DNA from: Candidatus Staskawiczbacteria bacterium
GTDB taxonomy: Bacteria > Patescibacteriota > Minisyncoccia > Minisyncoccales > Staskawiczbacteraceae
Length of the DNA stretch: 64,000 nucleotides
Assembly (NCBI GenBank): GCA_026395215.1
Contig: JAPLZC010000006.1
Location: 8,081-72,080 of the forward strand
Direction of reading: 5' to 3'
The notes below the pieces were generated by a model. The model had not been told where the DNA came from and ran no database searches. It was given only the letters and a program-made list of their open reading frames with translations. Positions 2,148 to 64,000 of this stretch are shown piece after piece. Made by a program: the position numbers and the translations under genes. The stretch's first letter is position 1; each line of letters opens with the position of its first letter.

Positions 2148-2543
2148 ATGACAGACGAAATGCAAGTACCAGAAAAATTTCAGAAATTAGTAGCTGAAAT
2201 AGAGAAAATGCCAGTTGTAGAATTGGCAGAATTGGTAAAAGTTTTGGAAGCCAAATTTGGTGTTTCTGCAGCAGCTCCAGTAGCAGTTGCCGCAGCAGCC
2301 GCCGGACCAGTTGAGGAAAAGACTTCTTTTAACGTTGAGTTGAAAGAGGTTGGAGCTCAAAAAATTGAGGTTATTAAAGTTGTTAGAGATGTAACAGCCA
2401 AAGGATTGAAAGAATCAAAAGACTTGGTTGATGCAGCCGCAGCCGGAACAGCTCAATTGGTAAAAGAAGGCGTAAAGAAAGAAGAAGCCGCCGAAATTGA
2501 AAAGAAATTCGCCGCCGCCGGCGCCAAAGTAGTTATCAAATAG
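2148..2543 (+). CDS. rplL: 50S ribosomal protein L7/L12
   Basis: 131 aa with an Ala-rich hinge ([14 protein letters not shown]) and a C-terminal domain [19 protein letters not shown]. Confidence 0.95.
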
Positions 2544-2562
2544 GAAATAGAAATTAGAAAAA

Positions 2563-2589
2563 GCAGAGGATTGACTCCTCTGCTTTTTT
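2563..2589 (+). terminator. rho-independent terminator after rplL
   Basis: gcagagga/tcctctgc 8-bp stem, 5-nt loop, T6 run. Confidence 0.8.
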
Positions 2590-2667
2590 GTTGTAAGGTT
2601 ATTGCCGAAGGACGTAATGTGCGTTCTAAAACGGAATGCGGACGTTCTTTGACAAGGAGGATGTGTT

Positions 2668-3165
2668 ATGGCAACAACAAAACTGGCCAGCACGTTCACT
2701 GGGGTTCGGTACAACATTGGCGTGAGACTAGACCAACTTTTGTCGGTTGGAGACTATTTTCGAAAGGCGGGTCTCGCTGGTGATGACGAAAGGGATATTG
2801 TTGATACGTCCGGATGGAATATGAAGAACAAAACGGTAGGTGTTCGCGTTTTCGTTCCATCTGGCAATCACGGTGGAAGAAGTAATTACGAAATCTTCTG
2901 GGAGGAGATGGGCAAATTTGGTGTTACTAAAAAGAATATACGGCATGCTGAAGCAGTAACTCTACGTTGCCCGCCGGCGCCGGAACCGTGCACGGATGAT
3001 GGATATCTTGGGACTTGCTCCATATGTGGGGAAGAACACCCAGTGATTGGTCCTATTGGAGCAGAGAGGAAATTCCTTATGGGGCGTCATACTCCCCATG
3101 GTGATGATTCTAGCCTCTGTAGTGGCACTTCTGCGCTTCCCAATGGTGAAGTGCGGCGTAAATAA
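2668..3165 (+). CDS. hypothetical protein, GC-rich cassette a (165 aa, Cys-containing C-terminal half)
   Basis: ATG preceded by AAGGAGG at 7-nt spacing. GC-richer than its neighbours. Own terminator downstream. No family recognised. Confidence 0.6.
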   Translation: MATTKLASTFTGVRYNIGVRLDQLLSVGDYFRKAGLAGDDERDIVDTSGWNMKNKTVGVRVFVPSGNHGGRSNYEIFWEEMGKFGVTKKNIRHAEAVTLRCPPAPEPCTDDGYLGTCSICGEEHPVIGPIGAERKFLMGRHTPHGDDSSLCSGTSALPNGEVRRK

Positions 3166-3204
3166 CCATAGTACCTGATTTTCAGGTTGTTGCTTTGCAA
3201 CGGC

Positions 3205-3232
3205 GTCCCGATGTCACATCGGGACTTTTTTT
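3205..3232 (+). terminator. rho-independent terminator after cassette a
   Basis: gtcccgatg/catcgggac 9-bp stem, 3-nt loop, T7 run. Confidence 0.8.
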
Positions 3233-3244
3233 ATAAATTGATTG

Positions 3245-3272
3245 TTGACAAATTGGGGACTTCTGGTATACT
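3245..3272 (+). promoter_or_regulatory. sigma70-type promoter of cassette b
   Basis: TTGACA 3245-3250, 16-nt spacer, TATACT 3267-3272. The leader contains a perfect 10-bp hairpin gtagcgattt/aaatcgctac at 3309-3348. Confidence 0.55.
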
Positions 3273-3405
3273 TAAAATATTAAATTGTTCTTTGAAATTT
3301 GATTCTCGGTAGCGATTTGGAAATAAATATTTGTTTTTAAATCGCTACTGAGACAGTGGCCATGTGGGAACAAGTCCCTCATGAACCTGGAACGGGAGAA
3401 CAGAA

Positions 3406-3888
3406 GTGAGCAGGAACAGCAAGAAGGGTGATGTCCAAACAATGTCGTTAAGCCAAGGTGTGATGTTGGCGATCGACATGAACCGTGAAGCCTTGTTGAA
3501 GGTTAACGGTGGAATTCTGCACGGAATGCAGGTTAACATGGAGCTTGGCTCTGAGAGACCGGGTCGTTCGATTTTGGATCTGAGGAAGGATCCGTACTTC
3601 GACGCCGCGACCAAGGACGAGACCATACGGGTGATCACCTTCAACGGCTCAGCCATGGGCCGTAACGGATGGTTCCGTTTTACCAGCATCTGCATAATCA
3701 GTAATTTTGTGCAGAAGATGTGGGACCCGTGGTTCGTCGACGTCAAAATCGAAGACTCCGACAAACTCCGGTTCACATACGTCAGGGACCACGAAGGCTT
3801 GCCGGTTATGATTGACTGGCACGCGGTCTCAGACGATTACCCGCCTCTTTCGGAGGATACGGGCACTGAGGATGCGGACGAGGAGTAA
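3406..3888 (+). CDS. hypothetical protein, GC-rich cassette b (160 aa from GTG 3406; alternative ATG 3442)
   Basis: GGGAG lies 8 nt before GTG 3406, and GAAGGGTGA lies before ATG 3442. GC-rich coding composition with an acidic C-terminus. No family recognised. Confidence 0.55.
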   Translation: MSRNSKKGDVQTMSLSQGVMLAIDMNREALLKVNGGILHGMQVNMELGSERPGRSILDLRKDPYFDAATKDETIRVITFNGSAMGRNGWFRFTSICIISNFVQKMWDPWFVDVKIEDSDKLRFTYVRDHEGLPVMIDWHAVSDDYPPLSEDTGTEDADEE

Positions 3889-3900
3889 TATCCGCTTTAA

Positions 3901-3948
3901 AGCGCCGGAAGAGTGAGAACATCTCACTCAACCGGCGCTGTTTTTTTT
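3901..3948 (+). terminator. rho-independent terminator after cassette b
   Basis: Nested stems agcgccgg/ccggcgct and gagtgag/ctcactc followed by a T8 run. Confidence 0.85.
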
Positions 3949-3977
3949 GCAAAAAGATGGTAGAATTGTTTAATAGG

Positions 3978-4002
3978 TTAGAGGGCAGTTAGTTCACTGG
4001 TA
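3978..4002 (+). repeat. degenerate duplicate of the tRNA-Val 5' end (left direct repeat of the GIY-YIG cassette)
   Basis: ttagagggcagttagttcactggta aligns with ttagagggcacgtagctcagctggtta at 4328-4354, about 21 of 27 positions. Confidence 0.6.
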
Positions 4003-4084
4003 CCCGACCAAAGCCCGCAAGGCGGGCATTGTGACGGGCCCGTCAAAATGCGCAAAGCGCTTTTGTCGGGGAGCATCAAATTTT

Positions 4085-4342
4085 ATGTTTTACACTTACG
4101 CATTTTACGACAAAACTAGAGGAATATTTTATATCGGTTTTACTAATGATTTGAAACGCAGAGTTAAGGAACATCAATTAGGTAAAACTCAAACGACACA
4201 AAGAATGCCGGACAAATTATTAGTTTATTATGAAGCCTGTTTATCTAAGAAAGATGCAGAGGATAGAGAAAGACAATTAAAAACAGGATTTGGTAGGGGG
4301 TACCTAAAACGAAGATTGAAATATTATTTAGAGGGCACGTAG
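4085..4342 (+). CDS. GIY-YIG nuclease-domain protein (small UPF0213/YhbQ-like)
   Basis: The N-terminus FYTYAFYDKTRGIFYIGFTNDLKRRVKEHQ is a classic GIY-YIG block. Start taken at ATG 4085 rather than the GTG 4031 track start. The stop codon lies inside the first 10 nt of tRNA-Val. Confidence 0.75.
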   Translation: MFYTYAFYDKTRGIFYIGFTNDLKRRVKEHQLGKTQTTQRMPDKLLVYYEACLSKKDAEDRERQLKTGFGRGYLKRRLKYYLEGT

Positions 4343-4406
4343 CTCAGCTGGTTAGAGCGCACCATTCACATTGGTGAGGTCTGTGGTTCGAGTCCACACG
4401 CGCCCA
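4333..4406 (+). tRNA. tRNA-Val (anticodon CAC)
   Basis: Manual cloverleaf. Acceptor GGGCACG/CGCGCCC has one A-C mismatch. D arm GCTC..GAGC. Anticodon loop TTCACAT. T arm TGTGG-TTCGAGT-CCACA. Discriminator A. No encoded CCA. Confidence 0.85.
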
Positions 4407-4407
4407 C

Positions 4408-8359: not shown

Positions 8360-10015
8360 ATGAGTAGTTCAAAGTTATATCCGCCGATAGTATTCGGCGT
8401 GTTTGGTACATTCGATCCGCGACTGGATGGCGCTGGCCCTCAGGACCGCGAACGGTCGAACTTCATCGTGAAAATGACCGCGGCAATGATTGCGGATCAT
8501 GTGAAAATGCCGGACGGTAATCCGGTGAACGTGTTTGAACCAAAAACCTTGGTTGGTGGTGAAAGGGATGCTGACATTGTCGCCGGAATGTTCAAAGGTG
8601 CCGGCGTGCAAGTTCTTGTTTGCGTTTCCGACACCTGGGCATATCCCGGCAAGACCGCGATTGCACTGGCAAATCACTTCCCAAACGACATGCCCCTGCT
8701 TCTTCTCTGCGGTAACTCGGCGCCCAAACCGGGAGTGGTTTTTGACCACGCCTGCAGCGGTGCCTTTGCGCAGATGGGACGCAAGGCTTATCTCATTGTT
8801 GGTACCTGGGACGATGTTGGCCAGAAACCGGTGATGACCGTAGAGACCGCCAGCGAACTGATTTCCTGGTGCTACGGCATGTTGCCCAAAGCCGGCTGGA
8901 AGGGAAAGCGTCTGCTTTTCCACGGCGCTCATTCCATGGAAATGGAAACTGCGATGGCGCATGTCATTGCTACCCGGAATCAGTTCGGGGTGCATATTTC
9001 CATGAACGACATGACCGAAGTCTCCGACCGTCTCACCAAGCGAGAGTACAGCGATTCCGAGCTTTATAACCTTCGCAGATGGATGGACAGGATGCTCGGC
9101 AAACGCATTCAGATTCGGAATGTCGAAGATGAGGGAAAATTCCAGCAAGAGCTGGCTATGTACCTCATCACGCGTAACCTCATGAACGAGGTCAATGCAA
9201 TCGGCGGCGGGTTTATGTCTCAGCTCTCGTGGGGCTCGGACAAACGCATTTTGCCTCGGCCGGTTGCCGATGCAATGGAAAGTCTTCACAACAGTACATT
9301 TGACCATAACGGCCCCAAAACACCCAGGCCCTATGCAACGGAGTCAGACGCACAAGGCGGGTTGACAATGTTGCTGCAGTTCTGGATCTCCGGCGGTATG
9401 CCTCCGCTTTTCGCGGACTTCCGCAAGGTGTGGGAGGCCAATGATTTGGCTGATGTGGCCGCCAGTCTGAAAGTGGTACTCTCTGATGATGGGTGGGCCA
9501 AGCGAGGAATTGTTGATTACGACAACTCCGGTTCGGCCTCGTTCAACTGGGCTGGAAAACCCGGCATGACGGCCGAGGAATGCACGGCCAAGGTCTCAAT
9601 GCCTTTGGCTGATGAATTTTATTTTCCCGGCGGAGGTAACAGTGTGACATTCATGACTCCTGGCGACATTGACATGTTGACCGGCCGGCTCTGGTATGTT
9701 CAGTCCAAAGACAGGTGGGCGCTTACCTGGGACGACGCAGTTACCTGCGAACTTCCCGCTCCGCTGGCCAACAAACTCGCCAGTCTGTCTTCGCCTGGCT
9801 GGCCACACACATGGGTCATGTTTAAGAACTTTGAGCTGGCGCTGGTCAAGCACATTTCGCCCGCCAACCACTGGCACGCAGTCTGGAACACAGACCGCCG
9901 GCGGCTGATGTATGCCATGGATGCCTTGGGTATCCAGGACCTGCATGCTTCCAAGTTCCCAGCGTACACCCCCGGGCACGACATCCCGCCAACACTGCTT
10001 TCGCTGATCAAGTAG
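8360..10015 (+). CDS. L-fucose isomerase family protein (FucI-like aldose-ketose isomerase), GC-rich cassette c
   Basis: These blocks align with E. coli FucI as I recall it: NSTFDHNG..YATESDAQGG (NSSFDWNG..VATENDSLNG), FADFRKVW (FADVRTYW), DNSGSA (INSGSA), FPGGGNSVTF (FRGGGYSSRF), WPHTW (WPTTW) and ANH. GGGGAG lies 6 nt upstream of the ATG. Confidence 0.8.
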   Translation: MSSSKLYPPIVFGVFGTFDPRLDGAGPQDRERSNFIVKMTAAMIADHVKMPDGNPVNVFEPKTLVGGERDADIVAGMFKGAGVQVLVCVSDTWAYPGKTAIALANHFPNDMPLLLLCGNSAPKPGVVFDHACSGAFAQMGRKAYLIVGTWDDVGQKPVMTVETASELISWCYGMLPKAGWKGKRLLFHGAHSMEMETAMAHVIATRNQFGVHISMNDMTEVSDRLTKREYSDSELYNLRRWMDRMLGKRIQIRNVEDEGKFQQELAMYLITRNLMNEVNAIGGGFMSQLSWGSDKRILPRPVADAMESLHNSTFDHNGPKTPRPYATESDAQGGLTMLLQFWISGGMPPLFADFRKVWEANDLADVAASLKVVLSDDGWAKRGIVDYDNSGSASFNWAGKPGMTAEECTAKVSMPLADEFYFPGGGNSVTFMTPGDIDMLTGRLWYVQSKDRWALTWDDAVTCELPAPLANKLASLSSPGWPHTWVMFKNFELALVKHISPANHWHAVWNTDRRRLMYAMDALGIQDLHASKFPAYTPGHDIPPTLLSLIK

Positions 10016-10052
10016 CGACCAGTTGGTGGTAGTCATACATAAAAATATCCTT

Positions 10053-10096
10053 ATCCTTGTGTAGTCTCTTCGGAGATTGCGCAAGGATTTTTTTTG
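10053..10096 (+). terminator. rho-independent terminator after cassette c
   Basis: 16-bp stem including G-U pairs, with a TTCG tetraloop and a T8 run. Confidence 0.85.
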
Positions 10097-10156
10097 CATA
10101 AAAACTATTGTGCGACAATTTGTTTGACAAAAGAGGAAAATAATGTAAAATAATAA

Positions 10157-10216
10157 GACAACTCTGGTCTTTGACATTTTACAGTTTTTATCTTTGCCCG
10201 CAAAGCAGAGAGCTGT
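10157..10216 (+). repeat. 60-nt shared 5' leader, copy 2 (upstream of the XylA-like gene)
   Basis: Same 60-mer as 8264-8323 with one substitution. Preceded by TTGACA 10124-10129, a 16-nt spacer and TAAAAT 10146-10151. Confidence 0.85.
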
Positions 10217-10252
10217 GTGGTATTTAGGCTAGAGAGAAAGAAGGCAGGAACA

Positions 10253-11386
10253 ATGAAGCGGCAAATGTTTAATCGTGGGCCAGTCACACAAAGGTCAATG
10301 CCTTTTTGGCCGTTGCAGTACCGCGGGACAGATCCTTTTGGCGGTCCGATTTTGGGCGCCATGGATTCATTGGAAACAGCCGATCTGCTGTGTTGGGCGG
10401 GAAAAGAAGGATTCATTGAACTAACCTCGGCCCATGATGATGACTTGGTGCCGTGGAATCCGAAGAGGCCGGAAGACGACCTGGATAAAAGCGGACTAGT
10501 CTACGGACGGCTTATGGAAATCCGTCAAAAACTCGACGCCGCCAACGTGGGTTTTCACATGGTTACCTGTTGTCTGCACGGAGACCCTATGTTCCGGCGC
10601 GGTGGGCTAACCAACCCCGATCCGAAAATTCGTGAACTGGCTAAGCTCAAAGTTCAGCGCACTTTGCGCATTGGCAGTATGCTCGGCGCCAAGCGGTTCA
10701 CCTACTGGGTGGCCCGCGACGGTTTCGAGGTGATGATCACTGTCGATCCGAAGGTGATGGACTGGTTGGCTGAAGGGTTGAATAGCGCAATCAGCTACAT
10801 GACTGAGGCCAGTCTGGACTACGATATGGCCACAATTGAACCCAAACCCAACGAACCGCGCGGACACATGTACCTGCCAACAGCAGGTCATGCCGCGGCC
10901 TTCACTCAAGCTCTCAACGAGCCAGGTTTCTGGAAAGTGAATCCGGAATTAACCCAGCACGAAGGTATGGCTGGGCTTGACCCGATTACTTGCATTCGCC
11001 TGCTCGTCAAGCTCGACAAATTGGGATTCCTACACTTCGGCAACCAGATTAACGGTCAGTTCGACAACGATTTTCCGCCGTTGGTTGGCCCGGAGCATCT
11101 CAAAGAAACAGCCGAGATGTTCCGCGTGCTTGAACAGCTCGGCTGGAAAGGTGTGGTTGAATATGACTGCCACGCATTGCGTTCTGAATTGAATCCGGAT
11201 GATTCGCTCGGATGCAAGAAGGACTTCATTGTAGACTGCACCATGGGCCTTTCCATCTCGCTCAAATTGGCGGAGCGGATTAAAAGCCTTGTGTTCGGCA
11301 TGCGCGAGAGCCAAGCTGATCTCAATTCGATTATGTTGCTTTGCAATCTTTCAGACGAAGATGTTAGTCATTACCTTGTTCGATAA
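10253..11386 (+). CDS. xylose isomerase-like TIM-barrel protein (divergent XylA family), GC-rich cassette d
   Basis: Blocks AHDDDL (XylA FHDxD), YWVARDGFE (FWGGREGYE), IEPKPNEP (EPKPxEP), NPELTQHEGMAGL (NIExNHAxLAGH) and FDNDFPP (WDTDQFP). Start taken at ATG 10253, with GAAGG upstream, rather than GTG 10217. Confidence 0.7.
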   Translation: MKRQMFNRGPVTQRSMPFWPLQYRGTDPFGGPILGAMDSLETADLLCWAGKEGFIELTSAHDDDLVPWNPKRPEDDLDKSGLVYGRLMEIRQKLDAANVGFHMVTCCLHGDPMFRRGGLTNPDPKIRELAKLKVQRTLRIGSMLGAKRFTYWVARDGFEVMITVDPKVMDWLAEGLNSAISYMTEASLDYDMATIEPKPNEPRGHMYLPTAGHAAAFTQALNEPGFWKVNPELTQHEGMAGLDPITCIRLLVKLDKLGFLHFGNQINGQFDNDFPPLVGPEHLKETAEMFRVLEQLGWKGVVEYDCHALRSELNPDDSLGCKKDFIVDCTMGLSISLKLAERIKSLVFGMRESQADLNSIMLLCNLSDEDVSHYLVR

Positions 11387-15723: not shown

Positions 15724-15798
15724 GGCCCCATCGTCTAGCCTGGTCTAGGACATTTCCTTCTCAAGGAAGTAACTCGGGTTCGAATCCCGATGGGGCCA
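15724..15798 (+). tRNA. tRNA-Glu (anticodon CTC)
   Basis: Manual cloverleaf. Acceptor GGCCCCA/TGGGGCC. D arm GTCT..GGAC. Anticodon loop TTCTCAA. T arm TCGGG-TTCGAAT-CCCGA. Confidence 0.9.
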
Positions 15799-15801
15799 CA
15801 A

Positions 15802-15832
15802 ACGGGCGGGTTATACACATAGCCCGTTTTTT
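15802..15832 (+). terminator. rho-independent terminator after tRNA-Glu
   Basis: acgggc/gcccgt stem followed by a T6 run. Confidence 0.7.
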
Positions 15833-15850: not shown

Positions 15851-16999
15851 ATGAATATGTTAAAGGATTTATTTAAGGATTATATTTATCCTGTAGCGGT
15901 GTTTTCGGGGGGGATGGTAGGCGTGGGGTTTTTGTCCCTGCCATATATTGCAGTGCAGACCGGTATTTGGATTATGCTTGGTTATTTTTTGGTTATAACG
16001 GCAATAGTAATTGCGCTTAATTTAATTTTTTGCCAAATAAGTTTAAAGACCCCTGATTACAAAAGATTCCCGGGATTTGTGGGACATTACCTTGGAAAAT
16101 ACGCCAAAGCCTTTTCAATGATATCGGTAATTTTTGCAACCGTTGGAGTACTTCTGGTTTATTTATTAGTTGGTGGCAAGTTTCTAACTACTGTTTTCCA
16201 ACCAATTTTTTCCGGGAGCGTTTTAACCTATGTGCTTATTTATTTTTTCATTGCAAGCATAATTATATATTTTGATATAAAAGTTGTTGCCAGAGCGGAG
16301 TTTTGGATTATAGCCTTACTTTTTTTATCTCTGCTTGTAATTTTTATAGAAGGTTTTTCCCAAGTCAAACTCTCTAATATATTTATTTCAAATTTTAAAC
16401 TTCAAATTTCAAATTATTTCCTGCCTTATGGTCCGCTGTTATTTGCTTTGTGGGGGATTGGGTTAATACCAGAAGTGGAGGAAATGCTTGCCGGCAGAAA
16501 ACATTTACTTAAAAAAACAGTTTTGATTTCAACTATAATAGTTTCTGTTTTTTACTTTTTGTTTATTCTCTTAATAACCGGAATTACCGGAGCAAGAACC
16601 GAGCAGACGGCCTTAATTGGACTTAATAATTTTTTACCAGGTATACTTGTTTCAGTTGCTATTTTTATGGGTATTCTCGCAACTTTTACCGCTTTTATTA
16701 CCCAGGGAATTATTTTTAAAAAAACACTTATGTTTGATTTAAAAATCAAGCATTGGCAGGCCTTTGTAATGACCTGCTTTCCACCGTTGATACTTTTTTT
16801 GCTTGGAATAAACTCTTTTATACCCTTGTTGTCCTTTATTGGAGGAGTTCTTTTAGGAATCAACGGAATTTTAATTTTATTAATGTATAGAAAAATATCT
16901 TGCTTGCCGGCAGAAAAAATAAAAAAGAATATCATAATCTGGGTTTTGTCTTTAGTCTTTTTATTAGGTTTAATTTACGAGATAATATACTTTATTTAA
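15851..16999 (+). CDS. amino-acid-permease-like polytopic membrane protein
   Basis: 382 aa with about 11 hydrophobic helices. The N-terminus resembles aromatic/amino-acid transporter families. The family call is weak. Confidence 0.5.
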   Translation: MNMLKDLFKDYIYPVAVFSGGMVGVGFLSLPYIAVQTGIWIMLGYFLVITAIVIALNLIFCQISLKTPDYKRFPGFVGHYLGKYAKAFSMISVIFATVGVLLVYLLVGGKFLTTVFQPIFSGSVLTYVLIYFFIASIIIYFDIKVVARAEFWIIALLFLSLLVIFIEGFSQVKLSNIFISNFKLQISNYFLPYGPLLFALWGIGLIPEVEEMLAGRKHLLKKTVLISTIIVSVFYFLFILLITGITGARTEQTALIGLNNFLPGILVSVAIFMGILATFTAFITQGIIFKKTLMFDLKIKHWQAFVMTCFPPLILFLLGINSFIPLLSFIGGVLLGINGILILLMYRKISCLPAEKIKKNIIIWVLSLVFLLGLIYEIIYFI

Positions 17000-17986: not shown

Positions 17987-20578
17987 GTGAATTTCTCTCA
18001 ATATACAAACATATCGGTTGAAGAAACGTTAAGAAGTCTTAAAACTTCAACTTTTGGTCTTTCTGAAAAAGAGGCAGTATTAAGAATAGAAAAATACGGA
18101 TTAAATGAAATAAAATCAAAAAATATTAACGCCATCAAAGTTCTTTTGAGGCAATTAAAATCTCCTTTTACTTATTTGCTTTTAATTGCCGCCTTAGTGT
18201 CTGTTTTAATAGGCCAATTGGTTGATAGTATTGCGGTTTTTGCCTTTATTGTGATTAATGTAGTTATTGGTTTTGTGCAGGAATACAAAGCAGAGAAAGC
18301 GGTATTTATGTTGCAGGAGTTTATACCAAAAAAAGTAAAAGTTTTGCGTGATTCAAAGGAAGAAATAATAGATGAAAAATTTTTAGTACCCGGAGATATT
18401 GTTTTGTTAGAGGCAGGGGACTTGGTTCCGGCGGATTTGAGGGTAGTAAATATGCACAACTTTTTGGTGAATGAATCGGCACTTACAGGAGAATCGGTTC
18501 CTGTTTCTAAAATTACAGAAGCGTTTAATAGTCAGGAAAGTGAGATATTTAAAGCCAAGAATATTATTTTTTCCGGTTCATTAGTTGTGTCGGGCAAGGC
18601 ACAGGCAATTGCCATAGCCACAGGCAAAGATACTGTTTTTGGTGATATTGTTAAAACAATCTCCGGCATAAGAAGAGAGAGCACCTACGAAAAAAGCATT
18701 TTGTTTTTCTGTAAGCTGATAATGAAAATTGTTGCGACAACAATAATTTTAATTTTTGTTGCAAATATATTAATAAAAGGCGTAAGCAATATTTTTGAGC
18801 TTCTTTTGTTTTCAGTTGCTTTAATAGTGAGTATTTTGCCAGAAGCTTTACCAGCCGTTGTAACTTTTGCGCTTTCGGGCGGAAGTTTACGTATGGCAAA
18901 GCAAAACGTGGTTGTAAAGAGATTATCTGCAATTGAGGATTTGGGAAACATAGAAATTTTGTGCACTGATAAAACAGGAACCTTAACGCAGAATAAACCT
19001 TCTTTAGAAAAAACCGTTTCGTCAGATAAAAAAAAGTGTTTTTTATACGGAATTTTGGCCTCGGGTGGAATTTTTCCCGCCACAGCGGGATCCCGCCCTT
19101 GGCGGGAAAATCCTTTTGACTCGGCCTTATATCAAAGGGCTACGGAAGAAATTTTGAGGGAATCAAAAAAATTTAAAATAGTTTCCGAATTACCATTTGA
19201 TTCATACAGAATGAGGTCGGCTTTTTTGGTAAAGAGTATAAAAAATGAAGCATTTTTAATTGTTAAAGGCGCGCCCGAGTCTATTATAAAAAATTGTAGA
19301 AATTTTTCCGCCCAAGGCGGACCAGCTTCGGGCTGGGATAAAAAAGAAATTCAAGAAGATATTGACAGAGAAGGCGTGGAAGGGAAAAGAGTTTTGGCTA
19401 TAGCATATAAAAAAATAGCAAACGAGAAGCGCGCTACAAACGAGGCCATACGAATAGAAGATGAAAAGGGGCTGACCTTTTTGGGTTATTTTGTTTTTGA
19501 TGATCCAATAAAAACTACTGCAAAAGAGGCGATAAGTTTATCTAAAAAGCTGGGAATTAAAATAAAAATTGTCACAGGAGATTCTAAAGAGGTTGCTTGT
19601 TATGTTGCCAGAAAAACAGGGCTTGTTTCGGGCATTGAAGATACAATTTCTGGTCAGGAATTGGAAAAATTATCAAAGGAAGAATTTGAAGACGCATGTG
19701 AAAGCAAAACTATTTTTGCCCGCATTTCCCCAGACACAAAACACAACATAATAAAATCTCTGCAAAAAAAATGTGAGGTTGGATTTATGGGCGAGGGTGT
19801 TAATGACGCGCCGGCTCTAAAAACAGCCGATGTTGGAATTGCCGTTGTTGAGGCGTCTGACATAGCCAGGGAAGCGGCTGATGTTGTTCTTTTGCAAAAA
19901 GATTTGCGGGTTATTATTAACGGAATTAAGGATGGCCGGACTATTTTTGCAAATATTAATAAATATATTAAATGCGCGCTTGCCAGCAATTTTGGTAATT
20001 TTTATTCAATTGCCGTAATTTCCTTGTTCATAAATTTTTTACCAATGCTTCCGGTACAGATTTTGCTTGGGAATATTTTATCGGATTTTCCATTAATTTC
20101 TATTGCAACTGATTCAGTTGACATAGACGAGCTTAAAAAACCAAAAGCCTACCAGTTGTATAATGTTTTGCCGTTGATTATTTCTCTGGCATTAGTCAGC
20201 ACTGTTTTTGATTTTATTTTCTTTTCTATTTTTCATGCGCAACAACCGGGCGTTATACAAACTTTGTGGTTTATTGAAAGCATTTTAACTGAACTTTTGC
20301 TAATTTACATTATCAGAACACGAGGTATTTTTTACAAAGCAAAAAGACCAGGTTTTTGGCTCATTTTCCTCACTGCAATTGATGGCATATTTGTTGTTGC
20401 CTTGCCGTTTTTGCCAATTGCGCAAAGCTGGTTCCATTTTGCAGTTTTGCCAATTATGCCATTGTTGATTGTTTTTTTCCTAATTGGTATGTATTTTATT
20501 GTCAGCGAAATAGTAAAATTAATCTATTTCCATTACCTGCCTGCCGGCAGGCAGGTTGGAAGCCAAAGATTTCTGTGA
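17987..20578 (+). CDS. cation-transporting P-type ATPase (type II, Ca2+/Mg2+-like)
   Basis: Motifs LTGES, CTDKTGTLT, VTGD and GEGVNDAPAL. GTG start. TGA stop. Confidence 0.9.
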   Translation: MNFSQYTNISVEETLRSLKTSTFGLSEKEAVLRIEKYGLNEIKSKNINAIKVLLRQLKSPFTYLLLIAALVSVLIGQLVDSIAVFAFIVINVVIGFVQEYKAEKAVFMLQEFIPKKVKVLRDSKEEIIDEKFLVPGDIVLLEAGDLVPADLRVVNMHNFLVNESALTGESVPVSKITEAFNSQESEIFKAKNIIFSGSLVVSGKAQAIAIATGKDTVFGDIVKTISGIRRESTYEKSILFFCKLIMKIVATTIILIFVANILIKGVSNIFELLLFSVALIVSILPEALPAVVTFALSGGSLRMAKQNVVVKRLSAIEDLGNIEILCTDKTGTLTQNKPSLEKTVSSDKKKCFLYGILASGGIFPATAGSRPWRENPFDSALYQRATEEILRESKKFKIVSELPFDSYRMRSAFLVKSIKNEAFLIVKGAPESIIKNCRNFSAQGGPASGWDKKEIQEDIDREGVEGKRVLAIAYKKIANEKRATNEAIRIEDEKGLTFLGYFVFDDPIKTTAKEAISLSKKLGIKIKIVTGDSKEVACYVARKTGLVSGIEDTISGQELEKLSKEEFEDACESKTIFARISPDTKHNIIKSLQKKCEVGFMGEGVNDAPALKTADVGIAVVEASDIAREAADVVLLQKDLRVIINGIKDGRTIFANINKYIKCALASNFGNFYSIAVISLFINFLPMLPVQILLGNILSDFPLISIATDSVDIDELKKPKAYQLYNVLPLIISLALVSTVFDFIFFSIFHAQQPGVIQTLWFIESILTELLLIYIIRTRGIFYKAKRPGFWLIFLTAIDGIFVVALPFLPIAQSWFHFAVLPIMPLLIVFFLIGMYFIVSEIVKLIYFHYLPAGRQVGSQRFL

Positions 20579-20593
20579 TAAACTAAATTAAAC

Positions 20594-21643
20594 ATGGATA
20601 TAACAACTATACTTTTAATAGTAATTGCAGTGGGGATAATTATAGCTGTTTTTTTGTTGTTAAGAAGAGAAAAGAAAGATTTGCCTGCGCAGGCAGGGGA
20701 CGGGTCTCTATTAATGCTTCAACAACAGTTGAATCAGGTGGCACAGGCGGTGGACAGTAAGTTATCAGAGTCAAATAAAAATGTGCAGGAGCAATTTAAA
20801 CATTCGGCTGATATAATTAGAAATGTTACTGAGAAGCTGACTAAGTTAGATGAAACAAATAGGCAAGTGGTTGGGTTTGCTGACCAATTAAAAAGTTTGC
20901 AGGATATTTTAAAAAATCCAAAACAGCGTGGAATTCTGGGGGAATACTATTTGGAAACCGTTTTAAAAAATGTTTTACCGCCTTCGTCTTTTCAAATGCA
21001 ATATTCATTTTCCAATGGCGAAATTGTTGATGCGGTTGTTTTTGTAGATAAGCGTATAATCCCAATAGACTCAAAGTTTTCTCTGGATAATTATAACAGA
21101 ATGTTGCAAACCAATGACCCGGTTGAAATAAAAAGATTGGAAACGGCTTTTGTTAATGATTTGAAATTGAGAATAGACGAAACCGCAAAATATGTAAGGC
21201 CGGAAGAAAAAACAATGGATTTTGCTTTTATGTTTATTCCATCAGAAGCCGTATATTATGATTTGTTAATAAATAAAGTCGGGGTTATTGCCGAAGACAC
21301 AAATAATTTAATTTATTACGCCGGAAAGAAAAAAGTTATTGTTGTTTCACCAACTTCATTTTTAGCTTATTTACAGACAGTTTTGCAGGGCTTAAGAAAT
21401 CAAAAAATTTCAGAACAAGCACAGACAATAATAAAAGAGGTAGAACGGCTGGGCAAACACTTATTTACTTACTCGGAGCATTTTAATCGTTTAGGTCAGC
21501 ATTTAGACGAGACAGTAGGTAGTTTTAACAAGGCAAAGGTAGAATTTGCAAAAGTTGATAAAGACGTAATAAAACTGGCCGGTGGGGAGAGTAAGCTGAA
21601 ATTAGAGGAAGTAGAAAGGCCTGCGATTGACAGCGGACAATAG
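20594..21643 (+). CDS. rmuC: DNA recombination protein RmuC
   Basis: N-terminal TM helix, coiled coil and C-terminal nuclease-like blocks (IPIDSKF, FMFIPSEAVY, VVSPTSFLAYLQTV). Confidence 0.85.
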   Translation: MDITTILLIVIAVGIIIAVFLLLRREKKDLPAQAGDGSLLMLQQQLNQVAQAVDSKLSESNKNVQEQFKHSADIIRNVTEKLTKLDETNRQVVGFADQLKSLQDILKNPKQRGILGEYYLETVLKNVLPPSSFQMQYSFSNGEIVDAVVFVDKRIIPIDSKFSLDNYNRMLQTNDPVEIKRLETAFVNDLKLRIDETAKYVRPEEKTMDFAFMFIPSEAVYYDLLINKVGVIAEDTNNLIYYAGKKKVIVVSPTSFLAYLQTVLQGLRNQKISEQAQTIIKEVERLGKHLFTYSEHFNRLGQHLDETVGSFNKAKVEFAKVDKDVIKLAGGESKLKLEEVERPAIDSGQ

Positions 21644-46124: not shown

Positions 46125-46172
46125 TATAATGGAAAATTAAATAGTTTTGCCCCGTGATAAACACAGGGCTTT

Positions 46173-46243
46173 GGGCCCATAGTAAATCGGTATTATGCCT
46201 CCATGGCATGGAGGAGGGCGGGGTTCGACTCCCCGTGGGTCCA
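46173..46243 (+). tRNA. tRNA-Ala (anticodon GGC)
   Basis: Manual cloverleaf. Acceptor GGGCCCA/TGGGTCC with the G3-U70 Ala identity pair. Anticodon loop ATGGCAT. T arm CGGGG-TTCGACT-CCCCG. Confidence 0.85.
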
Positions 46244-46245
46244 CT

Positions 46246-60945: not shown

Positions 60946-61002
60946 ATACTTATTATAGCATTTAGAAAGTAAATGTCAATATCTGTGCCCTTGTCGAGAC
61001 TC

Positions 61003-61044
61003 GCCAGGTGATTAACACCTGGCGCCCAGTGTTCATCACTGGGC
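61003..61044. repeat. tandem twin GC-rich hairpins (2 x 21 nt)
   Basis: gccaggtg-attaa-cacctggc at 61003-61023 is immediately followed by gcccagtg-ttcat-cactgggc at 61024-61044. Flanked by 9-nt direct repeats tgtgccctt at 60984-60992 and 61061-61069. Confidence 0.75.
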
Positions 61045-61365
61045 GAACTCATTTATTATTTGTGCCCTTAATCTTACACGATTGGAACGGAATTGTCCAC
61101 GAGATAAAAGAATATGCCGAAATTGCCAGGGCCTACAATGAAAGTCAGCTTTCAGCTTGTTAGGATATATAGTAGTAAAACTAAACTACCTATATAATAT
61201 CACATTAACTCAAAACATAAAGATGGCCGCATCCCCCACTCTTAAGGTGTGGACTTTTTATTTACCACTTAATTGTTGCGGCGACAATTAAGTTTTTTTG
61301 TGCTTGAAAAGAAGCTTGACAAATGGTAAATTAAAATAATAAACGGGAGTAAAAAATAGTTGAAA

Positions 61366-61543: not shown

Positions 61544-63121
61544 ATGACTGACGAACAAAAAAAGATATTAGAAAGGCAGTTGTGGGGCGTAGCAAATGCG
61601 CTTCGTGGAAAAATGAATGCTGATGAATATAAAAATTATATCCTCGGTTTTATTTTCTACAAATACCTTTCTGAAAAACTTGAGCAGTATGTGAATAAAA
61701 AATTGCTCGTCCGTGAAAAATTTACTTTTGCGGAGATAAAAGAAAATACGCAGGAAGGTAAAAAATATCTGGAACACATTAAAACCGCATGTGTCGGCCA
61801 TCTTGGATTTTTTTTGAAGCCAATAGAGCTTTTTTCATATCTGGTTAAAAAGGGTAAGGGAGAAATAAAAGATAAAGATACATTTATTCTTGAAGATTTA
61901 AAAAATGTTCTTAATGCCATAGAAAAAACTTCTGCCGGAACTGCAAGCGAAGACGACTTTAAGGGACTTTTTGATGACGTGGATTTAACATCTTCAAAGC
62001 TTGGCTCAAGAGAGAAAGAGAAAAACGAGGTTGTGGTTGAAGTTCTCTCACTATTGGACGGCATTGATTTTCAACTTGAAAATGCCAAAAGTGATTTGCT
62101 TGGCGATGCTTACGAATACTTAATTGGTGAATTTGCAGCCGGCTCGGGCAAAAAAGGCGGTGAATTTTACACGCCTGCGCAAGTGTCCCGACTGCTTGCT
62201 CAAATCGCCTCAAATGATAAAAAGCGTGTGCGTTCGGTTTATGATGCTGCTTGCGGTTCGGGTTCGCTCCTGCTTCGTCTTGGCGAGTTTACCGAAGTTA
62301 CAAATTACTACGGACAAGAGCTAAATCCTACTACCTACAACCTTGCAAGAATGAATATGATTTTGCATGGCGTGCAATTTGATCGTTTTTCTCTTCTACG
62401 GGGCGACACTTTAACCGAAGACATGCACCCTGACCTTAAGGCGGAAATAATCGTCGCAAATCCACCTTTTTCATTGCAATGGAAGGGGGAAAGCGATCCT
62501 GTGCTGGCTCATGACGACAGATTCTCGCAATATGGCAGACTTGCTCCAAAAAGTGCCGCAGATTATGCCTTTGTGACTCATATGCTATACCATTTGGCAG
62601 ATAACGGCACTATGGCAATTGTATTGCCTCACGGAGCGCTTTTTCGCTCCGGCGCCGAAGGCCAAATCAGAAAATACATAATTGAAAAGCAAAACTATCT
62701 TGATGCGGTTATTGGCTTGCCATCAAACCTATTTTATGGGACAACAATTCCGGCCACAATTTTAGTTTTCAAGAAATGCAGAAAAGATGACGAAGACATT
62801 TTGTTTATTGACGCCTCAAAGGAATTTGAAAAAGTTGGTAACCAAAACAAACTAACTGACGAAAATATCAAGAAAATTTTTGAAACTTACAAAAACCGCA
62901 AAGAGGTTGAAAAATATTCTCACAAAGCAGGCATAGAAGAAATAAAGGAAAACGACTTTAACCTTAATATTCCAAGATATGTGGACACATTTGAAGAAGA
63001 AACTCTGGTTGATATTGAAGCCGTGGCAAAAAATTTGAAAAAATTGCACACAGACGAGACTGATTTGGAAAGCAAAATTGAGAAGTTTTGCAAAGAATTA
63101 AAAATTGATAAGCCGTTTTAA
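61544..63121 (+). CDS. hsdM: type I restriction-modification system methyltransferase subunit
   Basis: HsdM N-terminal block LWGVANALRG..YKNYILGFIFYKYLSEK, SAM motif DAACGSGSLLL and catalytic NPPF. Confidence 0.9.
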   Translation: MTDEQKKILERQLWGVANALRGKMNADEYKNYILGFIFYKYLSEKLEQYVNKKLLVREKFTFAEIKENTQEGKKYLEHIKTACVGHLGFFLKPIELFSYLVKKGKGEIKDKDTFILEDLKNVLNAIEKTSAGTASEDDFKGLFDDVDLTSSKLGSREKEKNEVVVEVLSLLDGIDFQLENAKSDLLGDAYEYLIGEFAAGSGKKGGEFYTPAQVSRLLAQIASNDKKRVRSVYDAACGSGSLLLRLGEFTEVTNYYGQELNPTTYNLARMNMILHGVQFDRFSLLRGDTLTEDMHPDLKAEIIVANPPFSLQWKGESDPVLAHDDRFSQYGRLAPKSAADYAFVTHMLYHLADNGTMAIVLPHGALFRSGAEGQIRKYIIEKQNYLDAVIGLPSNLFYGTTIPATILVFKKCRKDDEDILFIDASKEFEKVGNQNKLTDENIKKIFETYKNRKEVEKYSHKAGIEEIKENDFNLNIPRYVDTFEEETLVDIEAVAKNLKKLHTDETDLESKIEKFCKELKIDKPF

Positions 63122-63123
63122 TT

Positions 63124-64000
63124 ATGCCAACAGCTACGACTTTAAAATTAGAAACTAAAAAATTACCGAAATTACGCTTTCCGGGATTTTCTGATAGATG
63201 GCAAAAAAGAAAGCTGGGTGAAGTTGCTAAATTTTGGAATGGGAAAGCACATGAACAAGATATTTCTGAAAATGGAAAATATATTGTTGTTAATTCAAAA
63301 TTCATTTCACAAAATGGACAGGTTAGGAAATATTCTGATAACCAGAGTTCCCCGCTGAAAAAAGGCGACATTACTATCGTTATGAGCGACATTCCAAATG
63401 GAAAAGCCATAGGGAAATGTTTTTTGGTTGATAAAGATGGTGCATATAGTTTGAACCAAAGAATTGGTGGAATCAAATCAAAAGAGATTGTAAGTCCATT
63501 CTTATTTAGAATAATAAATCGCAATAAATATTTCTTGAAATTTGATAATGGCGTAAGTCAAACAAATCTGCGGAAAAATGATGTTTCGGAATGTCCGGTT
63601 ATTTTTCCATCCACAGATGAGCAACAAAAAATTGCAGATTTTTTGAGTTCAATTGATACTTGGATTGGAAGTTTACAAGCGCAAAAAGAAAATTTTGCAT
63701 CGTACAAAAAAGGAATTATGCAAAAAATCTTTTCACAAGAACTTCGCTTTAAGGATGCTAATGGAAATAATTTTCCGGAATGGGAAGAGAAACAATTGGA
63801 AGACATTTGTGAATATAAAAATGGAGGAGCTTTTGAAAATAATTTAGTTAATAATGGAAAATATAACCTGATTAATTTGAATAGCATTGATATAACTGGG
63901 AAATTAAAAAATAATAATAAAACCGTTGACCATGCAGATTGGTATTTAGAAAAGGATGATTTGATTATGGTTTTAAGCGACGTTGCACACGGATATTTTT
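63124..64000 (+). CDS. hsdS: type I restriction-modification system specificity subunit (partial, runs off the window)
   Basis: ATG lies 2 nt after the hsdM stop and the frame stays open to the window end. Layout is TRD1, then a conserved central helix (EQQKIADFLSSIDTWIGSLQAQKENFASYKKGIMQKIF), then the start of TRD2. Confidence 0.8.
   Translation, partial: MPTATTLKLETKKLPKLRFPGFSDRWQKRKLGEVAKFWNGKAHEQDISENGKYIVVNSKFISQNGQVRKYSDNQSSPLKKGDITIVMSDIPNGKAIGKCFLVDKDGAYSLNQRIGGIKSKEIVSPFLFRIINRNKYFLKFDNGVSQTNLRKNDVSECPVIFPSTDEQQKIADFLSSIDTWIGSLQAQKENFASYKKGIMQKIFSQELRFKDANGNNFPEWEEKQLEDICEYKNGGAFENNLVNNGKYNLINLNSIDITGKLKNNNKTVDHADWYLEKDDLIMVLSDVAHGYF

Follow-up and report, generated by a model that had tools for sequence, protein, structure and literature searches.

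To our knowledge, selfish palindromes within genes are a textbook matter only for Rickettsia and for organelles. The Rickettsia palindromic elements (RPEs; Ogata et al. 2000/2002, as reviewed in PMC10969869) are palindromic repeats of approximately 100–150 bp that lie in frame within genes and encode a conserved peptide module. The GC42-type clusters of yeast mitochondria have putative AG target duplications (PMC4478555), and double-hairpin elements have been described in Allomyces and other mitochondria, together with the PstI palindromes of Neurospora (Paquin et al. 2000, as cited in PMC7218506 and PMC4478555). In bacteria, the repetitive extragenic palindromes (REPs), with the bacterial interspersed mosaic elements (BIMEs) and REP doublets forming hairpins (REPINs) that they make up and the REP-associated tyrosine transposases (RAYTs), are GC-rich palindromes of 20–40 nt, often in doublets and without target duplication (PMC3733652). 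No literature was found on palindromic inserts in the candidate phyla radiation (CPR) or the Parcubacteria. Here, GC-rich palindromes are described within the gene for an MgtA-like P-type ATPase, and elsewhere, in a 64,000 nt stretch of contig JAPLZC010000006.1 (positions 8,081 to 72,080) from Candidatus Staskawiczbacteria, referred to throughout as the window.

Three sites within the ATPase gene are probably, with a likelihood of approximately 0.8, recent insertions of 14–33 nt GC-rich, perfectly palindromic selfish elements, of which there are several families in Candidatus Staskawiczbacteria. The closest described systems are the RPEs in concept, and the mitochondrial GC clusters, the double-hairpin elements, and the inserts of Magnusiomyces in anatomy.

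The host gene is at 17987–20578 (all features given here are on the + strand) and is an open reading frame (ORF) of 863 aa with 36% GC. It carries the DKTGT phosphorylation motif, TGES, five Pfam domains, and full-length similarity to MgtA, the closest solved relative being that of E. coli (8uy7, E=7e-138). The protein is 100% identical to one from a Candidatus Staskawiczbacteria metagenome-assembled genome (MAG) in NCBI and the same 863 aa sequence is also present in the Logan collection of public assemblies. Among the 120 best orthologs the length is mostly 843–846 aa, making this protein approximately 17–20 residues longer. The related loci (L numbers) were all retrieved via the ATPase gene and the comparisons were limited to intact ORFs; the orthologs in the protein and codon alignment of the three sites have 72–78% identity.

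Site 1 (19075–19107) is a tandem twin hairpin with the layout A-x-A'-A-y-A', TCCCGC-CACA-GCGGGA followed by TCCCGCC-CTT-GGCGGGA; its 33 nt (76% GC) sit between ATTTT and AAAT and encode FPATAGSRPWR. Site 2 (19307–19336) is a pair of unlike hairpins, TCCGCC-CAA-GGCGGA and CCAGC-TTCGG-GCTGG, 30 nt in all (73% GC) and encoding SAQGGPASGW. Site 3 (20536–20555) is a single perfect palindrome of 20 nt, CCTGCCTGCC|GGCAGGCAGG (that is, CCTGCCTGCCGGCAGGCAGG), designated family C, which encodes LPAGRQ and reaches 22 nt with the flanking A/T (20535–20556). The initial annotation of this DNA had reported these sites, with these coordinates and peptides, as GC spikes in AT-rich coding sequence, and inspection of the sequence and the ORF translation confirms this; where the window is AT-rich, the 14-nt windows with at least 12 G+C that are palindromic are almost only these sites. 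The predicted RNA folds of sites 1, 2, and 3 have energies of -27.7, -18.3, and -21.7 kcal/mol (z = -4.5, -2.6, and -4.2). There was no Rfam match at any hairpin.

Comparison with composition-matched shuffles, which had been put forward as a check on these palindromes, shows that they are in excess. The ATPase gene has 6 hairpins with a stem of ≥6 and a GC fraction of ≥0.8, versus 0.09–0.17 in dinucleotide-preserving, blockwise shuffles; a count of 6 was not reached in any of 300 shuffles, including those confined to 60-nt blocks, which preserve local GC spikes. Across the window there are 10 such hairpins versus about 2 when shuffled.

Removal of the palindromes restores conserved codons. At site 1, deletion of the 33 nt gives ATT TTA AAT CCT TTT GAC, encoding ILNPFD, which is identical in all orthologs, while at site 2 deletion of the 30 nt gives AAT TTT GAT AAA AAA, encoding NFDKK, where the orthologs have GNFDKK. 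The proposal that these are insertions is therefore upheld, as the orthologs do not have the segments and excision restores their codons. The proposal that the protein gained segments of 11 and 10 aa is upheld only as to the inserts themselves, since six codons upstream of site 1 (DKINEK) and four upstream of site 2 are gone as well, leaving net gains of +5 and +6 aa. The insert at site 3 is 20 nt, which is not a multiple of three, and shifts the frame 9 codons ahead of the ancestral stop. In the old frame, the sequence after it is TGG AAG CCA AAG ATT TCT GTG ATA AAC TAA, encoding WKPKISVIN*, which matches the ortholog tails HYWKPK..VV.*. The fact that this is still readable downstream of site 3 indicates that the current tail, LPAGRQVGSQRFL, is a product of the frameshift, with the last 9 residues replaced. 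Entry without breakage of frame, as initially envisaged, is thus true of sites 1 and 2, but not of site 3. After exact excision there is no target duplication at sites 1–3, nor at the inserts in L006 and L121 described below; the elements enter DNA precisely.

Sites 1 and 2 had been placed in loops of the N domain, which is borne out by the alignment to MgtA 8uy7 and by the predicted model (AlphaFold, 31 sequences). The predicted local distance difference test (pLDDT) score in this model is <50 at residues 362–373 and 442–448, corresponding to these two sites, and also at 481–483 and 852–863; the three insertion sites and a small fourth insert each match one of these segments. Other low-confidence stretches of the model lie elsewhere, such as the long one at residues 148–218. 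The fourth insert (19428–19441), which is 12 nt long, encodes RATN, and contains AGCGCGCT, lies between AACGAG repeats and also occurs in ortholog P0097.

The site 3 20-mer is found at other positions in Staskawiczbacteria genomes. Of the 120 orthologs, P0025 and P0081 have the rare insert SLPAGRQ at residue ~453 and P0120 has GLPADRQ, and the DNA of these residue-~453 inserts (L090/L091, L092, L137) is the 20-mer between AAA and GAA ATT, the L137 copy having 2 substitutions, with a G-to-A change at the centre. All of these copies are 21 nt, with an extra, frame-restoring base: A in L090 and L092, G in L137. Pairwise identity among the three carrier ATPases is 63–71%, their nearest neighbours (83–87% identical) are without the insert, and the smallest clades that unite the carriers contain 25 and 99 of the 120 sequences. 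That the compensating base differs, A versus G, argues for independent gains at the same site, and the simplest reading of these sequences would be that a 20-nt unit entered repeatedly and independently at a single hot position, and that the +1 corrections made afterwards differed. A length in multiples of three, which the initial annotation had noted for sites 1 and 2, is not a property of the elements, as the same 20-mer becomes 21 nt at internal sites through the compensating +1 base; element length is unrelated to reading frame.

There are two other copies of family C close to the ATPase gene. The first of these, (G)CCTGC|GCAGGCAGG at 20683–20697, is shortened and lies in the N-terminal linker of RmuC (ORF 20594–21643), where the ortholog sequence KKPEPEKKEE is replaced by REKKDLPAQAGD; there are other GC-rich inserts in the same linker of L002 and L010. 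The other, CTTGCTTGCCGGCAGAAAAAA at 16899–16919 (peptide CLPAEKI), is within a Trp/Tyr-permease-like gene (15851–16999), is a 7-aa insert absent from 12/12 permease orthologs, and differs from the 20-mer by GC-to-AT changes, by which copies decay. Variants of family C are also present in the L010 permease (CCTGCCTGCGCAAGCAGG), in the L002 homolog of window ORF 26675 (CCTGaCTGCCGGCAGGCAGG), and in a PDDEXK gene of L096 (CCTGCCTGC|GCAGGCAGG). The 20-mer is translated in differing frames, as LPAGRQ and CLPAGR. Two other explanations of these sequences were considered and set aside: that the native CAGGCAGG in RmuC is the template of the palindrome, as the count of this 8-mer fits chance, and that family C is a DNA uptake sequence, as the half-site is not over-represented.

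A second family is represented by a 29-mer, CCCGCCTCCGCCAAGGCT[T/A]CGGCGGGCAA, in near-identical copies at ATPase residue 412 in L093 and residue 440 in L096, with a relative in a different gene of L006. It has TCCGCC-AAGGC and TTCGG in common with site 2 of the window. In L006 there is a 22-nt palindrome in the ATPase tail, removal of which restores KIAVV*, and a second copy 846 nt away; L092 has two related palindromes 220 nt apart; and L009 has a twin hairpin in the same ATPase loop as site 1. The initial annotation had proposed a small family of hairpin repeats invading genes, of which the dispersed repeats are borne out but the single family is not, there being several. Neither the exact 20-mer nor the exact 18-mer was found in the searchable literature. 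Across ten syntenic genes, compared in up to 19 genomes, there are 38 lineage-specific inserts, of which 29 have at least 50% GC; this level is reached by only 24% of windows of 12 nt and 11% of those of 21 nt (binomial p = 1.5e-11). Internal inserts are 33, 30, 24, 21, and 18 nt, those at the C-terminus 20 and 22 nt, a difference which indicates that frame preservation reflects survivorship; internal copies are 3n long, in some cases through a compensating 1-nt slip. All of the ATPase insertion sites have predicted pLDDT <50, and surviving copies are in surface loops, linkers, C-terminal tails, and intergenic DNA. There is no strong target consensus, although T-runs are frequent 5' of the insert. 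In approximately 83 kb of this genome, made up of the window and additional sequence, four palindromic inserts fall within 1.65 kb (p ~ 3.5e-5), with the fifth, decayed copy 3.6 kb upstream.

Some further GC-rich sequences were seen in these comparisons. The motif CCTTCG[GA]CGGGCTCAGG[GA] recurs as a GC-rich insert in unrelated genes of L004, L002, L096, and L090, with peptides such as PSAGSGS, SPSTGSGQ, and SSARLR. Long nested hairpins, (TT)GCCAGCCCGCC-GAA-GGCGGGCTGGC, in more distant Parcubacteria loci (L013 6207, L019 3241, L026 8425) unite stems that are in tandem at window site 2. An early stop in L008 was discounted, since this sequence has multiple frameshifts that are probably long-read (Nanopore-type) assembly errors.

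The exact 20-mer CCTGCCTGCCGGCAGGCAGG is also present in 35 IMG/VR stretches, as 47 copies, mostly on contigs of 54–68% GC. Two composition-matched control palindromes had 0 matches in the viral contigs, which indicates that these 35 matches are not generic to GC-rich palindromes. The site 2 20-mer had 0 matches there and the L006 18-mer 2, which is about chance level. There is no exact match to the family C 20-mer in 2.3 Gb of cultured phage records, and among the matches listed for the cultured phage and plasmid collections there are imperfect ones only. Per base, the 20-mer is approximately 10,000 times commoner in the Staskawiczbacteria loci than in IMG/VR, a rough figure for which the size of IMG/VR is assumed. 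In L121 the 20-mer lies exactly in the variable loop of a tRNA-Met, removal leaving a perfect 72-nt tRNA-Met; in L103 it is between phage structural genes; and in L117 the copies are preceded by GTAG. In both L117 and L103, which are rich in the 20-mer, Pfam identifies structural genes and no transposase, and the copies are intergenic. Several viral copies are bordered by direct repeats of 7–14 nt, as at L099 1660 (CACAGAGA, 8 nt), L105 8396 (TCTCGTCTCTCGCT, 14 nt), and L115 3391 (TTGCGGA, 7 nt), which could be target duplications of variable length or tandem-repeat contexts. No such flanking direct repeats are present at the Staskawiczbacteria copies of the 20-mer.

Free-standing GIY-YIG homing endonuclease genes are known in tRNA clusters, SegB of phage T4 being an example. 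In the window there is a gene for an 85-aa GIY-YIG nuclease (4085–4342; Pfam PF01541, E=3e-14), a candidate mobilising or associated enzyme, within a cassette at 3948–4407. From 5' to 3' this consists of a promoter-like TTGCAA..TAGAAT, a degenerate tRNA-Val 5' fragment (3983–4002, a copy of nucleotides 1–20 of the tRNA, with GGTA at its end), a twin hairpin that is GC-rich and approximately 70 nt long (4003–4071; fold -42 kcal/mol, z = -3.7) that contains GCCCGC-AAG-GCGGGC (4013–4027), the sequence GAGC, the GIY-YIG ORF, and the intact tRNA-Val (4333–4407) that the ORF abuts. The twin hairpin thus occupies the D-loop position GGTA^GAGC. From its sequence, the cassette resembles a mobile, tRNA-targeting nuclease gene. 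L160 and L164 (79–83% identity) share this arrangement, the stems covarying, and L160 also holds a solo copy without the ORF (1345–1441). In the viral contig L128, a GIY-YIG homolog is behind a tRNA 5' fragment in which the GGTA^GAGC position holds the family C 20-mer, and a duplicate of the tRNA fragment downstream is without the 20-mer. Altogether, GIY-YIG homologs lie beside hairpins and tRNA fragments in L009, L128, L025, L160, and L164. The homologs in the protein database are mostly on contigs of 0.5–2 kb, as would be expected, because repeats break assemblies.

At the tRNA-Glu locus there is a series of presence and absence. In L009 a GIY-YIG homolog is directly 3' of the tRNA, followed by a twin hairpin of the type at 61002 in the window and, beyond this, by an exactly duplicated tRNA 3' end; in L006 there is no more than the twin hairpin and a 3'-end duplicate that has diverged; and the site in the window (15724–15830) is empty. 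A GIY-YIG ORF linked to repeats, along with presence or absence at a fixed target, was found for the twin-hairpin modules only. Like the SegB type, these are small GIY-YIG ORFs at or in tRNA genes that are present or absent between relatives, as at L009, L006, and the tRNA-Glu of the window; the difference is that partial tRNA duplicates and GC-rich twin hairpins delimit the present ORF, which is known from sequence only. The intergenic twin hairpin of the window (61002–61045) has two 9-bp stems with the loops ATTAA and TTCAT. The initial annotation, giving it as 61003–61044, had likened it to the tandem layout of the ATPase inserts, a likeness that is correct for the layout but not for the sequence family. 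Covariance model R2 finds copies of it, with compensatory changes and conserved loops (AUUAA, UUYAU), in L006 (7678–7730) and L009 (7785–7835), both directly 3' of tRNA-Glu. It belongs with the tRNA- and GIY-YIG-associated elements, rather than with the sequence families of the ATPase inserts.

The window copy of this twin is flanked by direct repeats of TGTGCCCTT, and a Logan contig ends inside it. A hairpin at 46148–46168, GCCCCGTG-ATAAA-CACAGGGC, just upstream of tRNA-Ala (46173–46244), resembles half of the 61002 twin and is a weak match to R2. In L164 (1323–1462), tRNA-Ile is followed by an insert of approximately 120 nt and then by a duplicate of the tRNA-Ile 3' end (AGTCCTAGTGCGCCCACA); this is another small element that uses a tRNA 3' end.

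The stems of the GIY-YIG modules, CCCGCC/GGCGGG, GCCAGC-TTY-GCTGGC, and GCCCGC/GCGGGC, recur in ATPase sites 1 and 2, with site 2 related to the GCCAGC-TTY-GCTGGC of the GIY-YIG leaders, and the A-x-A'-A-y-A' layout is common to modules and ATPase inserts. This sharing of stems and layout is suggestive, although not proof, of a tie between the two. The palindromes are probably non-autonomous hairpin elements, which most likely move when a nuclease makes a break, the repair of which then copies a hairpin module. Hairpins might also duplicate in tandem, giving twins, and recombine, giving hybrids. Copies that destroy genes would be lost through selection, while others would be translated as additional loop residues and would decay under the AT-biased mutation of the genome. 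The break would be made by a structure- or site-specific nuclease, for which the small tRNA-targeting GIY-YIG protein, with twin hairpins of these same stems bordering its gene, is tentatively put forward as the best candidate. It is rather doubtful that these would turn out to be the smallest mobile DNA yet described, in which perfect palindromes of approximately 20 nt, with CCTGCCTGCCGGCAGGCAGG as the prototype, in the genes, tRNA loops, and intergenic DNA of CPR bacteria and GC-rich phages, are mobilised in trans by small tRNA-targeting GIY-YIG nucleases, with the twin-hairpin modules as the autonomous partner.

It might instead be that hairpins extruded in single-stranded DNA are cut and pasted by an HUH (Y1) transposase, as in REP/RAYT or IS200/IS605-like systems, which leave no target duplication. 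The precise insertion, the size of 20–33 nt, the doublets similar to those of REP/BIME, and the 5' flanks that often end in a T-run (ATTT^) would agree with this, as would the GTAG tag of REPs ahead of the 20-mer copies in viral L117. The tag, GTAG/CGTC, is however present at no Staskawiczbacteria copy, REPs are extragenic while the copies here are largely in coding sequence, and no RAYT or other Y1 domain (Y1_Tnp) was annotated by Pfam in the fetched loci or among the scanned window ORFs, although the whole genomes were not searched. An origin of this kind, the main alternative, is unlikely. Less likely again is that no mobile element is involved, the palindromes having arisen locally by template switching, snap-back synthesis, or slippage at quasi-palindromes. 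At sites 1 and 3 the insert does lie at the centre of an AT-rich quasi-palindromic target, or adjacent to the centre (GGAATTTT|AAATCC and TTCCATTA|TTGGAA), twins resemble tandem duplications, the L009 twin incorporates ancestral TTAAGC codons, and copies of the same family can be as close as 150 nt (window), 846 nt (L006), and 220 nt (L092). Such processes cannot yield an identical GC-rich 20-mer or 29-mer at non-homologous sites, in ATPases that are 63–78% identical, and there is no GC-rich seed in the AT-rich targets. The presence of identical sequences at unrelated sites means that purely local generation is insufficient.

It is quite improbable that the hairpins are functional mRNA or DNA structures under selection, such as pause, processing, or binding sites, rather than selfish. 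Although the structures are strong and significantly stable, the stems perfect, and the 20-mer unchanged at every base between distant lineages, nearly all orthologs lack them, the occupied positions vary between genomes, decayed copies exist, and copies are also found in a tRNA variable loop and in unrelated genes. Ordinary variability of the loops, with ancestral sequence or simple indels that are palindromic by chance, has very little to recommend it; the loops at residues 357–370 and 439–453 do differ in length across the family, but the hairpin count is not reached by any shuffle, excision restores the codons of the orthologs, and the sequences are identical to copies at other loci. There is as slight a chance that a sequencing or assembly artefact is responsible, be it an adaptor or linker palindrome or an assembler fold-back, as might be suspected from the 20-mer being in many unrelated metagenome-derived contigs and lacking an exact match in cultured phages, and from Logan contigs that break at palindromes. 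The flanks are contiguous and the ORFs intact, the 863 aa protein is in the Logan collection as well as in the NCBI MAG, and the inserts of L090 and L091 are identical, while coming from two different JGI (Joint Genome Institute) samples. Likewise, the internal copies have an extra frame-restoring base that differs between lineages, decayed copies exist, and the 20-mer goes unmentioned in the searchable literature.

There are several points that weigh against the sites being insertions of mobile selfish elements. No transposase or other proven mobilising enzyme was identified, the copy number per family is low in the sampled DNA, and the codons missing beside sites 1 and 2 mean that the events there are not simple insertions. 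The concentration in the ATPase across genomes is partly ascertainment, as the loci were fetched through this gene, and comparing only intact ORFs biases the sample to in-frame survivors. Clustering within 1.65 kb is not obviously expected of a freely transposing element, although part of it is explicable by permissiveness, since the ATPase evolves faster than its neighbours (mean identity of 72%, versus 85% for RmuC, in the syntenic gene comparison). An identical 20-mer in GC-rich viral contigs of unrelated hosts ill fits a lineage-restricted element. The link to GIY-YIG rests on about 6 loci and partial stem similarity, a search with model R3 yielded no additional leader modules, and distant GIY-YIG genes in phage contigs have no association with hairpins.

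Compared with the RPEs, there is the same presence of selfish palindromes in frame in unrelated genes of a reduced, AT-rich genome, at tolerant sites and in several families; here, inserts are in low-confidence loops and the ORF is intact. The elements described here are set apart by being perfect, GC-rich palindromes of 14–33 nt that themselves favour no reading frame, without the size or the peptide module of the RPEs, and by the host being of the CPR/Patescibacteria, not Rickettsia; sequence similarity to the RPEs would not be expected. Nearer to the RPEs in size is an imperfect palindrome of approximately 60 nt, GTTAAATACCGC..GCGG..AAATTATTTAAC, with two inner hairpins, at L094 3154 and at L096 4937 and 15269 (proteins P0064, P0067). 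It is in frame in different genes, where it encodes (P)VKYRKAVI..KLFN, and is not present in the window.

With the mitochondrial GC clusters and byps (PMC4478555; PMC5009743), the palindromes share the form of short GC-rich hairpins dispersed in an AT-rich genome, coding DNA included, that vary between relatives, along with rapid turnover, the merger and shuffling of units, and a proposed tie to endonucleases encoded elsewhere in the genome. They differ in having a bacterial (CPR) host and no AG/TAG target duplication, as is seen for the M-class in yeast. The byps of Magnusiomyces capitatus break the frame and are skipped by the ribosome, while the internal copies here are in frame. Translational bypass at site 3 appears unlikely, there being no matching take-off and landing codons flanking it. 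Double-hairpin elements, which are reportedly 26–79 nt in length, likewise have a unit made of a pair of neighbouring GC-rich hairpins, an arrangement also found at sites 1 and 2, 4003–4071, and 61002–61045, and their presence or absence between close relatives has similarly been read as evidence of mobility; those elements, in contrast, are mitochondrial. REPs are similar in size to the palindromes here, but are tagged, extragenic, and high-copy, whereas these are untagged in every Staskawiczbacteria copy and mainly genic. Miniature inverted-repeat transposable elements are a poor match, with no target duplication at sites 1–3, L006, or L121, and no parental insertion sequence found.

The remodelling of proteins by intragenic palindromes would thus extend to another reduced, AT-rich lineage. 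Alignment, annotation, and structure prediction of CPR proteins are complicated by unusual G/A/P/R-rich loops and by differences in length, at least some of which may be explained in this way, and the inserts are natural data on the positions of proteins that tolerate insertion. The candidates identified here, being the 20-mer, the twin-hairpin modules, and the 85-aa GIY-YIG nuclease, bear on how hairpin elements might move without transposases, a question common to the mitochondrial GC clusters and the REPs. That palindromes break short-read assemblies also matters for the quality of metagenome-assembled genomes.

Elsewhere in the window, there is a GC-rich island between ClpB and MraZ (8360–11386; 52–57% versus 36% GC) encoding L-fucose-isomerase-like and xylose-isomerase-like TIM-barrel proteins. 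This is absent at that position in L090 and L094, and was therefore probably acquired horizontally. A GC-rich stretch after rplL (2400–4000; 44–52%) includes two ORFs without a Pfam match (2668–3165 and 3406–3888) and ends in a long terminator hairpin at about 3900–3947. At the end of the window (61544–64000, and L136) a Type I restriction-modification operon starts, with HsdM, HsdS, a PIN-domain protein, and HsdR.

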